Shown here: positions 1 to 32,055 of the stretch, piece by piece
Layout of the letters: every line of letters begins with the position of its first letter
Position numbering within the stretch: position 1 is the stretch's first letter
Assembly (NCBI GenBank): GCA_034190465.1
Contig: JAXINV010000021.1
Coordinates: 1 to 41,119 of the forward strand
Origin: Candidatus Asbonarchaeum danakilense
GTDB lineage: Archaea; Nanohalarchaeota; Nanosalinia; Nanosalinales; Nanoanaerosalinaceae
Length of the DNA: 41,119 nt
Direction: 5' to 3'
Position numbers and translations under genes: made by a program
Notes under the pieces: generated by a model
What the model saw: the letters and a program-made list of their open reading frames with translations, nothing else
Told to the model about the DNA's origin: nothing
The model's database searches: none

Positions 1-2
1 AG

Positions 3-168
3 TGGACTCGCGGGGATTTGAACCCCGGGCCTCCTGCTGTTCCGCGCTCGGTTCTCGGAAGGAACCTCGTCTCGAAGACCGGCGGTCTTCTCGAACCCGG
101 CTTCCCTTCCTGCGGTCGGAAAGCGGGTGTTGCGAAGCAGGCGTTCTGCCAGGCTGAACTACGAGCCC
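3..168 (-). tRNA. tRNA-Ala(CGC) with 92-nt intron at 37/38 (intron 39..130)
   Basis: Reverse complement reads GGGCTCGTAGTTCAGCCTGGCAGAACGCCTGCTTCGCA|intron|AGCAGGAGGCCCGGGGTTCAAATCCCCGCGAGTCCA. Acceptor stem has G3-U70; anticodon stem CCTGC/GCAGG; TTCG pairs with intron CGGA in a BHB-like motif. Confidence 0.93.
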
Positions 169-213: not shown

Positions 214-1395
214 TCAAGGGTGGAGGTCGCGCTGCTGTAACGCCGTCCTGAGCCGGAAGTACAGCAGGGAGCTTCCGATCCCCGCTGCAGCGAGTGCGAC
301 GAAGACAGTACCGAGCCCGTACACGACCAGCAGCCCCATGGAAGCCGGTCCAAGCGTCTTCCCGATGTTCTGGAGAGTGGAGTTCAGTGCTACAGTCCCG
401 CCCCGGTGCTCCTGTTCGACGTTCTGTGTCAGCAAGCTCTTGTGCAGAGGGCTCAGCGCCGCATCCGCTAGCCCAATACCAAATATACAGGCGAGGACGA
501 CGCCGAGATGGCCCGTCAGCGCGATGATCAGGCATCCAGCGCCGATGACGAGCAGGGAAATGAACACCGAGGACGTCTTCCGGTACCTGGCATTGATAGC
601 GCCGGCGCCCGCTGACGTCACGATCCCGCCGAGCGAGAGCAGTCCCAGGTAGACACCGACCTCGCTAGAAGCCGCACCGAACCGCCGGACCAGGAGCAGG
701 GGCAGGAACGCAAGCAAACTGTACCGGACGAACATCCGCACGAACCCGATCGAGAGGTACAACCGGATGCGGGGGACCGATGCCACAGCACGGAGATCGT
801 GTATATACTCGCGTGGACGGCTGGAGGTACTGGCTGTCGAGGGGATGCCCCGGTAGATCGCCACCGCGAGCGGGATCATCACGAGGTAGACGAGGAACAC
901 GTTCCGCCACCCGAGCCCTGCGAGGATGCCTCCAAGCACTGTCCAGACGAGTCCTCCGACTTTGTTGAATGAAGTGCGGAGCCCCTGTGCCGTTGTCTCA
1001 CGGCCGTAGCTGTAGAAGTCGCCGAGCAGTGCCACGGTGGCCGGCATCACGCAGGCAAATCCTGCACCCTGGACGATACGGGCTGTGAGCAGTGCGTTGA
1101 ATCCCGGGGCGTAGAACGAGGCGAGGCCGCCGATACCCATCAGGAGGCTTCCAGTGGCCATGACCCGGTTCCGCCCGGCTGTATCGGCAAGAAATCCGGA
1201 TACAGGGGTTATGAAGACGGTCGGAAGGGTGAACGCGGTTATGAGCAACCCGATCCGTGCGTCCGACACCGAGAGACCGGTGGCGATTGCCGGTAGCGCC
1301 GGTGATAGTAAGTTCACCCCAGATACACAGAAGACGCTGCTTGCCACGACGATCAGGAATCGCCGATCGTTCAAAAGCCCATTGAACCGGTCCAT
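214..1395 (-). CDS. MFS transporter
   Basis: About 12 hydrophobic segments; motif-A-like GFLADTAGRNRV; ARIVQGAG. Start taken at ATG 1395. Confidence 0.88.
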   Translation of the reverse strand: MDRFNGLLNDRRFLIVVASSVFCVSGVNLLSPALPAIATGLSVSDARIGLLITAFTLPTVFITPVSGFLADTAGRNRVMATGSLLMGIGGLASFYAPGFNALLTARIVQGAGFACVMPATVALLGDFYSYGRETTAQGLRTSFNKVGGLVWTVLGGILAGLGWRNVFLVYLVMIPLAVAIYRGIPSTASTSSRPREYIHDLRAVASVPRIRLYLSIGFVRMFVRYSLLAFLPLLLVRRFGAASSEVGVYLGLLSLGGIVTSAGAGAINARYRKTSSVFISLLVIGAGCLIIALTGHLGVVLACIFGIGLADAALSPLHKSLLTQNVEQEHRGGTVALNSTLQNIGKTLGPASMGLLVVYGLGTVFVALAAAGIGSSLLYFRLRTALQQRDLHP

Positions 1396-6753: not shown

Positions 6754-6936
6754 TGGTCCCTCCGGGTCTCGAACCCGGGACCGCCGCCTCTCTCACGACT
6801 GGCGTCCCAGTCGACAGGACGGTCGCGTTCCGATGGAACGCTCCGCCGCTGCGCGGACGGTTGAATCGCGCCGTAACAAGATAGAGACGCGATGTCCGTA
6901 TAAGGACGGTGCTCTAACCAACTGAGCTAAGGGACC
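6754..6936 (-). tRNA. tRNA-Ile(UAU) with 109-nt intron at 37/38 (intron 6790..6898)
   Basis: GGTCCCTTAGCTCAGTTGGTTAGAGCACCGTCCTTATA|intron|AGGCGGCGGTCCCGGGTTCGAGACCCGGAGGGACCA. Spliced loop is CT-TAT-AA; CTTA pairs with intron TGAG (BHB-like). Confidence 0.9.
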
Positions 6937-31230: not shown

Positions 31231-31379
31231 GAGAGGCAGCGGGCAGCAGGCGGAGTGGGTATGGTATCGTCCTGCTGCCCGGGTTCGGAGCGGTCCTGGC
31301 TTCCCCCGGTGCGGCGGTGCTGCTGTGGGACAGGGCAGCACGACCGCGGCTGGCCGGACGGCTGTCCTCCTAGCCTCTC
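31231..31379 (-). ncRNA. candidate ~150-nt structured RNA
   Basis: Closing stem GAGAGGC/GCCTCTC, 11-bp CGGGCAGCAGG/CCTGCTGCCCG hairpin and GCGG..GTGCTGC/GCAGCAC..CCGC arm; followed by a T-rich tract. Confidence 0.6.
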
Positions 31380-31383
31380 TGTG

Positions 31384-31536
31384 TTATTGTTCTAACTGGG
31401 CGAGTGCATCGTCGAAGTGCTCAGGGCACAGCGTTTTGCCCGAGCGTTTGAACACGCCCTTCCGTTCACGGTGTTCAGGAACTCGGAGCACGAGCGGCAC
31501 CTCAAGCTGTGCACCGCACCGTTCGCAGCTTTCCAT
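31384..31536 (-). CDS. 50-aa Zn-finger-like protein (CxxC...CxxH)
   Basis: MESCERCGAQLEVP...KTLCPEHFDDALAQLEQ; strong GGAGGTGA SD upstream. Confidence 0.65.
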   Translation of the reverse strand: MESCERCGAQLEVPLVLRVPEHRERKGVFKRSGKTLCPEHFDDALAQLEQ

Positions 31537-31556
31537 TGTGTTGTCACCTCCGGAAG

Positions 31557-31706
31557 AACCGTCCGCCCGATTTGAACGGGCAGTTCCGTGCTTAGCCATC
31601 GCACCCCTGAGGAAGGTAGTGCGGTGGGTCGACACGGCGTGTTGCCAGGGAGGCCCTGGGCATGCGGTTGGAGGCAGCAGGGGCATGCCCTTGACACCAG
31701 GACGGC
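31557..31706 (-). ncRNA. tRNA-like RNA with expanded D and anticodon arms
   Basis: Acceptor GCCGTCC/GGACGGT, D-stem GTGT/ACAC with TGG, stem CCGTG/CACGG, variable loop AACT, T-arm GCCCG-TTCAAAT-CGGGC. Confidence 0.72.
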
Positions 31707-32055
31707 ACGAGAAGGATCTTTCGTCCGCCCGTGTTCCACACCCGGTGAGGCCGCGGTGAGAAGGGGAGGCGGGCTACTCGGTTATCATCTCCACATAATA
31801 TTGTGGACAAAATAGGTGGAGACTGTTGAGACTAGGTGCTTGACAAATCCTGTGGGCGTACAGCCCGTCCGAGCACCAGTCTCAACTGTCATGTGGTAGC
31901 CCTCTTACAGCACCTAAATGCCTCCCCTCCTTTAAATATGTTGCGCCAGTCAGGGTCGGCAGCCGGTAAACGATCGTAAGATTTGCTACCCGAAGATATA
32001 ACTTTTATAAGGTTCGCGTCCGCTTCGGGTTTTGAATACAAAGAGGCCGCACCCG

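Follow-up and report, generated by a model that had tools for sequence, protein, structure and literature searches.

A conserved tRNA-like element without an anticodon loop between two microprotein genes of Nanohaloarchaeota

What can the body of a transfer RNA (tRNA) be kept for if it carries no anticodon loop? This question is raised by a 150-nt element on the minus strand (31557..31706) of the stretch of Candidatus Asbonarchaeum danakilense DNA analyzed here (GenBank assembly GCA_034190465.1, contig JAXINV010000021.1, positions 1 to 41,119; hereafter the window, and contig C11 of the genome). The assembly comprises 1.2 Mb in 81 contigs at 61% GC, is 92% complete, and encodes acidic proteins. 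A preliminary description, made from the letters of the window, had proposed a tRNA mimic with an intact elbow or, alternatively, a tRNA interrupted by two non-canonical introns. The first proposal holds up: the four cloverleaf stems covary among homologues, and the elbow motifs (a TTCRANN T-loop and the D-loop GG) occur in every orthologue. By these comparisons, the element is a real, evolutionarily conserved RNA and not a decayed tRNA. Its most probable role, in our view, is that of a signal for RNA processing between two small genes.

Fold and conservation of the element

Read from 31706 to 31557, the minus strand contains all four stems, the D-loop GG, and the canonical T-loop that had been described. 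The acceptor stem pairs GCCGTCC (31700..31706) with GGACGGT (31558..31564) and is followed by a discriminator T (31557) without an encoded CCA; its 1-72 pair is a G.U wobble in the source genome (G000) and G-C in the sister species (G001; both belong to genus g1). T8 and G9 precede the D stem, GTGT (31694..31697) with ACAC (31639..31642), which is paired in 100% of cells among nine homologues. The insert of about 43 nt noticed earlier is present; however, it belongs to the D loop and leaves the D stem uninterrupted, and it consists of two hairpins. Hairpin A (31658..31690) has an 8-bp stem (GGGCATGC/GCATGCCC) and a pyrimidine-rich 17-nt loop with CCTCC; hairpin B (approximately 31646..31658) pairs CAGGG with CCCTG around a 3-nt loop and is directly followed by the elbow GG (31646-31645). 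One additional C lies between the D stem and the base equivalent to A14. The anticodon-side arm (52 nt, 31586..31637) contains no 7-nt loop. Instead, as the preliminary description had it, the anticodon loop is replaced by a long extended helix: a 5-bp stem (CCGTG, 31637-31633, with CACGG, 31590-31586) encloses 42 nt that form a 5x5 internal loop (TCGAC/CTAAG) and then a hairpin of about 13 bp. A variable region, AACT, and the T arm, GCCCG-TTCAAAT-CGGGC (31565..31581), complete the element. The minimum free energy is -69.3 kcal/mol (z = -2.69, with 2 of 200 shuffled sequences equally stable), and the minimum-energy fold recovers the acceptor stem, the T arm, and the long arm. Folding energy by itself is weak evidence for the fold.

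Homologues were sought in all 70 species genomes assigned to the phylum Nanohalarchaeota, 10 of which belong to the family of the element. BLAST found one orthologue, in G001, where the anticodon-side stem is CCGCC/GGCGG in place of CCGTG/CACGG and the T stem is TCCCG/CGGGA in place of GCCCG/CGGGC; the internal-loop strands (ACAAC/CTTCC) are unlike those of G000, and the D-loop insert is 79 nt long. A covariance model of the 3' part, made from two sequences (R1), was strong in G000 and G001 only and gave true family-level homologues E-values of only 0.01-0.04; these weak matches led to a related genus, g5. A second model (R2), built from three g5 sequences, matches G000 (40.8 bits), G001, G004, G005, G007, G008, and G009. 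The orthologues of these seven genomes represent three genera of one nanohaloarchaeal family (Ca. Nanoanaerosalinaceae or near). At E ≤ 0.1, R2 matched in none of the 60 genomes of the four other families of the phylum, and no copy of the gene cassette described below was found in the searched genomes G002, G003, and G006 (80-87% complete). A weak R2 match in G001 (C3:84535-84676, 21 bits) appears to lie within a coding region, and we disregarded it as a probable false positive. R2 also matches a compact 69-nt cloverleaf in G006 (L167:1501-1569, plus strand, contig C51), which has a normal D arm and CCGGA-TACA-TCCGG for the anticodon loop; this look-alike heads an ordinary tRNA gene cluster, a context unlike that of the cassette.

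Detectors of known RNAs pass over the element. Default ARAGORN called only tRNA-Thr(GGU) and tRNA-Pro(CGG) in the window, with no tRNA or transfer-messenger RNA (tmRNA) at the element, and Rfam at gathering thresholds matched the same two tRNAs there and nothing at the element. Rfam gave nothing meaningful at E ≤ 10 over 31300-31950, and E-value scans of this locus and six related loci gave only ordinary tRNAs and chance matches. With introns allowed, ARAGORN reports "tRNA-Glu(ttc) i(32,61)", that is, with a 61-nt intron, at the exact coordinates of the element. This call is implausible: the drawing reduces the D stem to 3 bp and makes up a variable arm, and we therefore treat it as a forced fit. 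For annotation, it means that intron-mode tRNA detectors will miscall the element as tRNA-Glu.

Base pairing was counted in two alignments. A structure-blind MAFFT alignment of seven copies misaligns the middle of the elements, and therefore only the acceptor and T columns were counted in it. These stems are paired in 98.8% of 84 cells, with 6 of the 12 pairs changing on both sides, compared to 27-60% pairing in slid controls. In a model-guided alignment of the nine homologues, pairing holds in 98.6% of 215 cells, and both sides have changed in 16 of the 29 pairs (acceptor, 5/7; D, 2/4; hairpin A, 4/9; anticodon-side, 2/4; T, 3/5); the preliminary description had named a lack of covariation, together with a missing transcript, as the mark of a decayed pseudo-tRNA. 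No shuffle of 500 reached the observed values, and slid controls were 38-52% paired. This alignment leans to the structure of its model, and the structure-blind count is therefore given too.

Contigs of related strains added variation over a shorter distance. In hairpin A, 31686 A>G accompanies 31662 U>C (minus-strand letters), a compensatory change from A-U to G-C, and 31683 C>U turns C-G into U.G. The long arm has a C>U change at 31601 and an A>G change at 31608, each giving a wobble; a change at 31654 breaks one pair of hairpin B, and three further changes fall in loops. The acceptor, D, T, and proximal anticodon-side stems were free of variants in these contigs. Judged by comparison of homologues and strains, the fold of the element is under selection, and a tRNA body without an anticodon is kept.

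A cassette with two microprotein genes

The element occupies a constant place. In all seven orthologues, a TATA-like box, a short open reading frame (ORF1), a second hairpin (M), the tRNA-like element, a spacer with a Shine-Dalgarno site, and a second reading frame (ORF2) follow each other in this order, and the ≈190 nt 5' of the element are better conserved than the element itself. The flanking genes differ: NucS lies downstream in genera g1 and g4, and isochorismatase and DeoC genes flank the cassette in g5. The TATA-box-like sequence TATTTAAAG (31930..31938, minus strand, as for all features of the cassette) stands about 40 nt 5' of the ORF1 start and is conserved in G001, and TTTTTAAAG is found at the same place in g5; we infer that this box is the promoter.

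ORF1 (31785..31892) would encode a 35-amino-acid microprotein (MTVETGARTGCTPTGFVKHLVSTVSTYFVHNIMWR in G000) that ends in HNIMWR, with its stop codon 6 nt before M. The frame is present at 7/7 orthologous loci, with 31-35 codons and a [DN]I[MV]W[RG] ending. Differences within g5 fall mostly in third codon positions (16 vs 7 and 6), and an in-frame 3-nt indel separates G000 from G001. This pattern of change argues that ORF1 is a real, unannotated microprotein gene. In the mRNA, codons 3-7 and 18-23 of ORF1 would in addition pair into a long hairpin (31886-31872 with 31840-31825) that persists, with other sequence, in g5.

Hairpin M (31718..31778) lies 12 nt 5' of the element, begins 3-8 nt past the ORF1 stop across loci, and contains the invariant strings AGTAGC..G.C and G.CGG.CGAA. 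With 0-1 mismatch, M occurs at 11 loci, all in 8 of the 10 family genomes and none in the rest of the phylum; the copy of G004 has diverged. Some of these copies are paralogues in which a short ORF is followed by M, and M always lies a few nt past a short ORF, as it does at L016, L017, L018, L021, and L034. Locus L016 holds a paralogous cassette (G001:C1, L016:1398-1490, minus strand) with a short ORF, M, and a different, 93-nt tRNA-like element, in which the D arm is CGGTG/CACCG and a 10-nt loop replaces the anticodon loop; GAGGTGA follows 3' of this element, and then a possible Cys/His-rich ORF that starts with GTG. Outside the phylum set, a metagenome scan with a pattern joining the ORF1 end to the M start returned 49 loci, none with an R2 match and none with the M sequence by eye. 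The M pattern gave at least 119 matches in public genome contigs, mostly chance matches in GC-rich bacteria because the pattern is too degenerate; two loci of a Candidatus Nanoanaerosalina metagenome-assembled genome were the only useful ones. M did not fit the consensus positions of a kink-turn or a hammerhead, as compared by eye only. Its AGUA...GAA flanks resemble a sarcin-ricin/loop-E module, but no closing helix is conserved.

On the 3' side, a 20-nt spacer (31537..31556) carries the Shine-Dalgarno site GGAGG (31551-31547) that serves ORF2. The distance from discriminator to ORF2 start codon is 17-20 nt in 7/7 orthologues and 14 nt in the paralogue, and a Shine-Dalgarno site lies 4-10 nt past the element in every copy. 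ORF2 (31384..31536) encodes a 50-amino-acid zinc-finger microprotein (CxxC ... CxxH) with no Pfam family above threshold. Across orthologues its product has 50-60 amino acids with an invariant CExCG...VL...LCxx[HC]F pattern (C4, E5, C7, G8, V16, L17, L36, C37, and F41); its relatives in the protein database were three near-identical proteins, and Pfam zinc-finger matches were sub-threshold only. In G005 (L006, approximately 1215-1300, minus strand), TTGACCAGAGC stands in three direct copies just past the ORF2 stop, and similar words lie 3' of ORF2 in G008.

The conserved region of about 350 nt was considered as RNase P RNA or signal recognition particle (SRP) RNA. Both were found elsewhere in the genome (RNase P RNA at C18:1096-1430, 81.9 bits against a cut-off of 84 bits; SRP RNA at C3:18918-19188, 107.5 bits), and the locus matched neither model; the region is therefore neither.

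Possible functions of the element

We favor, at a probability of roughly one half, the reading that the element is a processing signal of the t-element type for RNase P and tRNase Z. The cassette would be transcribed as a single RNA, and the element would have no promoter of its own; in genus g1, the 35 nt 5' of the element lie inside the GC-rich M, so that no TATA box stands at tRNA-promoter distance. A cut by RNase P at the 5' end of the element would release the ORF1-M part, and a cut by tRNase Z past the discriminator would release an ORF2 mRNA with a short Shine-Dalgarno leader. The freed tRNA-like RNA would measure about 106-187 nt and may receive CCA.

This reading is consistent with what the element has kept. 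The features used by tRNA end-processing and elbow factors (a 7-bp acceptor stem stacked on a 5-bp T stem, the T loop, the D stem, and the GG) are present, together with an unpaired discriminator, and no orthologue encodes CCA after it. G000 has genes for tRNase Z (324.7 bits), a CCA-adding enzyme, the splicing endonuclease, and an RNase P RNA. A non-canonical cloverleaf with acceptor and T arms and no CCA past the discriminator is also the structure expected of the loose class of t-elements, and the place of its 3' end, shortly before the ORF2 start in 7/7 orthologues, would fit a mature end of the neighboring RNA. In the passages of PMC1920247 that deal with plant mitochondria, t-elements are non-canonical cloverleaves where cuts by RNase P and RNase Z make mRNA ends, and in those of PMC4326828 that deal with Haloferax volcanii, a t-element lies upstream of 5S rRNA and t-elements are portable processing signals. 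The frequency with which an ORF start follows real tRNAs of G000 (9/20, vs 947/2000 for random places) is uninformative.

Several points weigh against the processing reading. Hoelzle et al. (2012, Biochimie) are reported to have found that other computationally identified Haloferax tRNA-like elements went uncut in vitro; resemblance to a tRNA would then be no proof of processing by itself. Predicted pairing of leader with trailer lengthens the acceptor stem in 3/8 copies and could hinder the enzymes. An A/T-rich AATATT box stands about 25 nt 5' of M in most copies, so that a separate transcript with M and the tRNA-like element could begin there. Finally, acceptor and T arms suffice for a pure processing signal, and yet a D-loop hairpin is kept in all seven orthologues with compensatory changes. 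Selection on a hairpin that is dispensable for processing indicates that cutting is not its whole function, and it suggests that the released RNA or its precursor also binds a partner.

The D-loop hairpins themselves show a recurrent composition. A hairpin stands at the place of hairpin A in all seven cassette orthologues, and a second one (B), drawn by eye, in G001, G005, G007, and G008; B is weak or absent in G004 and G009. CCUCC occurs in a D-loop hairpin loop in 5/7 orthologues (hairpin A in G000, G005, G007, and G008; hairpin B in G001), and the loop of hairpin A is 61-76% pyrimidine in 6/7 by manual count. G009 is without CCUCC, and G004 has CU-rich tracts only. In G008, the hairpin A loop matches 8 nt of what we take to be the 3' end of 16S rRNA (UCACCUCC).

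These tracts bear on the alternative that survives best, which we regard as unlikely: the element may stay uncut, as a cis-acting tRNA mimic in the 5' leader of ORF2 that controls ORF2 translation. It could act by binding a tRNA-binding protein or the cassette microproteins, with the thrS operator and the tRNA-like yjdF riboswitch as parallels, or its CCUCC/CUUCUC tracts could hide the Shine-Dalgarno site. The Shine-Dalgarno site just past every copy of the element, the tracts complementary to GGAGG in a D-loop hairpin loop of five orthologues, and CUUCUC-type leader tracts in G000, G001, G004, G005, and the paralogue are all consistent with such control. In addition, the Shine-Dalgarno site is predicted to be paired to the leader in the ensembles of 3/8 copies (P(unpaired) 0.03-0.16), and regulation of translation by a tRNA-like fold is known in bacteria (PMC9142559). 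In contrast, the site is mostly open in 4/8 precursors (P(unpaired) 0.55-0.95), which makes the predicted masking inconsistent, the CCUCC is missing from G009 and G004 as noted, and ORF2 belongs to no family above threshold.

A further alternative, that the element gives rise to a stable trans-acting RNA of tRNA shape, is more doubtful. After excision, or from a transcript of its own, this RNA could be a scaffold or decoy that displays the anti-Shine-Dalgarno-like loop of the D-loop hairpin, perhaps in a particle with the ORF1 or ORF2 protein; mascRNA, YrlA, and the Haloferax tRNA-derived ribosome-binding fragments are parallels. Selection on parts that are dispensable for processing argues for it, since hairpin A covaries (4/9 pairs, across g5) and has the compensatory strain variant; so do the pyrimidine-rich loop in six of the seven orthologues and the paralogous cassette of G001, which keeps M, the tRNA-like element, and the Shine-Dalgarno site. 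However, the loop sequence is unconserved in G009 and G004, no Ro/TROVE gene was found in the 92%-complete genome, and a trans-acting RNA does not need tight and constant spacing to the ORF2 start. In the most far-reaching form of this idea, the excised RNA would be a functional small RNA whose tRNA body serves processing, CCA addition, and stability and whose loop is anti-Shine-Dalgarno-like, a proposal that we likewise hold doubtful. The element would be considerably more interesting if this proposal were true: the small RNA would act on ribosomes or on mRNAs bearing Shine-Dalgarno sites, possibly as a particle with both microproteins, and DPANN archaea would have a native regulatory RNA built on a tRNA scaffold, issuing from a self-punctuating mini-operon.

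The two remaining explanations take the element for a tRNA gene, decayed or interrupted, and the arm in place of the lost anticodon stem-loop bears on both. This arm has no fixed sequence; in the seven orthologues it measures 52, 54, 14, 12, 12, 12, and 13 nt and is capped by an apical loop of about 4-10 nt. The long arms (52 and 54 nt) are those of g1, the 14-nt arm is that of G004, and the g5 arms have 12-13 nt (examples of short arms are CCG-TACCTC-CGG, CCGG-GTTT-CTGG, and CCGG-AAAAA-CCGG). The discriminator also differs among orthologues, being T, G, C, or A. That the element is a decaying pseudo-tRNA without function, kept by chance or by hitch-hiking between two genes, might be read from the missing anticodon, the G1.U72 wobble in G000, and the varying arm lengths; compensatory change at 16 of 29 pairs and pairing in 98.6% of cells across three genera, a core that is invariant in related strains, and a cassette position that is kept while flanking genes change make this very improbable.

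The introns of the preliminary description were examined at the sequence level. Of the canonical tRNA features, the element has the 7-bp acceptor stem, the D stem with G18 G19, and the 5-bp T stem with a T54-Psi55-C56-type loop; it does not have a 5-bp stem with a 7-nt U33 loop, a conserved anticodon, or purine 37. No anticodon-side arm of any orthologue contains a 7-nt loop with U33, and in G004, G005, G007, G008, and G009 the arm of 12-14 nt is too short for an anticodon stem-loop. Eight single excisions would leave a 7-nt loop in G000 and G001, none with U33 and none with an anticodon shared by the two, which disposes of the tentative splice that left CTA in the loop. A scan for the bulge-helix-bulge (BHB) motif (3-nt bulge, 4-bp helix, 3-nt bulge) recovered canonical introns of control tRNAs of the genome (such as Asn 38..68 and Ser 42..91); in the element it gave only register slips inside continuous helices, none of them homologous and none at all in G009, in keeping with the earlier remark that no canonical BHB could be drawn at either insert. 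The reading as a genuine tRNA gene, in which removal of two non-canonical introns would supply a decoding tRNA otherwise missing from the genome, is therefore rejected, as there is no U33 or common anticodon, the arms are short in five orthologues, no BHB is homologous, the discriminator varies, and the D-loop insert is, unlike an intron, a selected structure at a conserved place; we give it next to no credence even though splicing endonuclease is encoded, many tRNA genes of the genome bear introns, and several anticodons were not seen in the 92%-complete assembly.

Known tRNA-like RNAs and other tRNA genes

Among known systems, t-elements are closest in that they, too, are non-canonical, non-decoding cloverleaves with acceptor and T arms that lie inside a longer transcript, here a predicted one, with the 3' end near a downstream gene product. 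They differ in that cleavage here is only inferred, the D-loop hairpins are selected and the anticodon-side arm is very variable, and the present element keeps its place beside M and two microprotein genes in three genera, whereas described t-elements are isolated cases. The mascRNA/MALAT1 modules also are tRNA-like folds within a longer RNA, and their excision by RNase P and RNase Z, which here would be the predicted route, leaves a small tRNA-like RNA as well as a defined end of the neighboring RNA; however, they belong to eukaryotic nuclei, have a small arm on the anticodon side, and lack insertions in the D loop, and the downstream product here is an mRNA. The suggested likeness to the tRNA-like domains of tmRNA and YrlA, both bacterial, stands as a concept, as these also mimic the acceptor/T-arm/elbow half of a tRNA without an anticodon, but the element lacks the defining features of both. 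In tmRNA there is a G3.U70 pair, no D stem, and RNA ends around an internal tag ORF; in the element, pair 3-70 is C-G or U-A and never G.U, the D stem is present, and the ORF lies downstream. YrlA has a Ro-binding helix and a Ro partner, whereas the element has no conserved enclosing helix and a search of the 92%-complete genome for a TROVE (Ro) gene found none. Archaeal tRNAs that are split or have multiple or non-canonical-BHB introns (reviewed in PMC4033280) share the domain and the insertions in D loop and anticodon side; unlike them, the element has no BHB or recoverable anticodon, and its inserts are conserved structures, not excisable spacers.

The element appears to represent an undescribed RNA family, so far confined to one family of Nanohaloarchaeota. 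No tRNA-like element of Nanohaloarchaeota came up in full-text literature searches, nor is one described in the tRNA passages of PMC9765267, where the family was named. The locus defines an RNA family that Rfam lacks, and with it hairpin M and two microprotein genes that had no annotation. The hosts are genome-reduced symbionts, in which every retained element is likely to matter. To our knowledge, natural archaeal tRNA-like processing signals are known mainly from one Haloferax case upstream of 5S rRNA; with its family-level conservation, covariation, and mRNA context, the present element offers a test of tRNA punctuation for archaeal mRNA 5' ends.

Three observations concern other tRNA genes. 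In another family of the phylum (genomes G023 and G017; L003, approximately 1411-1530, and L008), an intron-bearing tRNA is followed after 2-5 nt by the ATG of a membrane-protein ORF, so that a real tRNA may define a nearly leaderless mRNA in these relatives. In the window, positions 2-168 (minus strand) hold an intron-bearing tRNA-Ala(CGC) gene with G3.U70, which default ARAGORN and Rfam missed; its anticodon loop reads TTCGCA|A, and the intron, at 37/38, has about 92 nt. A further tRNA gene at 6754-6936 (minus strand) has a normal 5' half (GGTCCCTTAGCTCAGTTGGTTAGAGCA...) and the loop CTTATAC, and its T arm follows only after an apparent insertion of about 89 nt; the call of ARAGORN -i is "Tyr(ata)", and the gene is possibly one for tRNA Ile-UAU.

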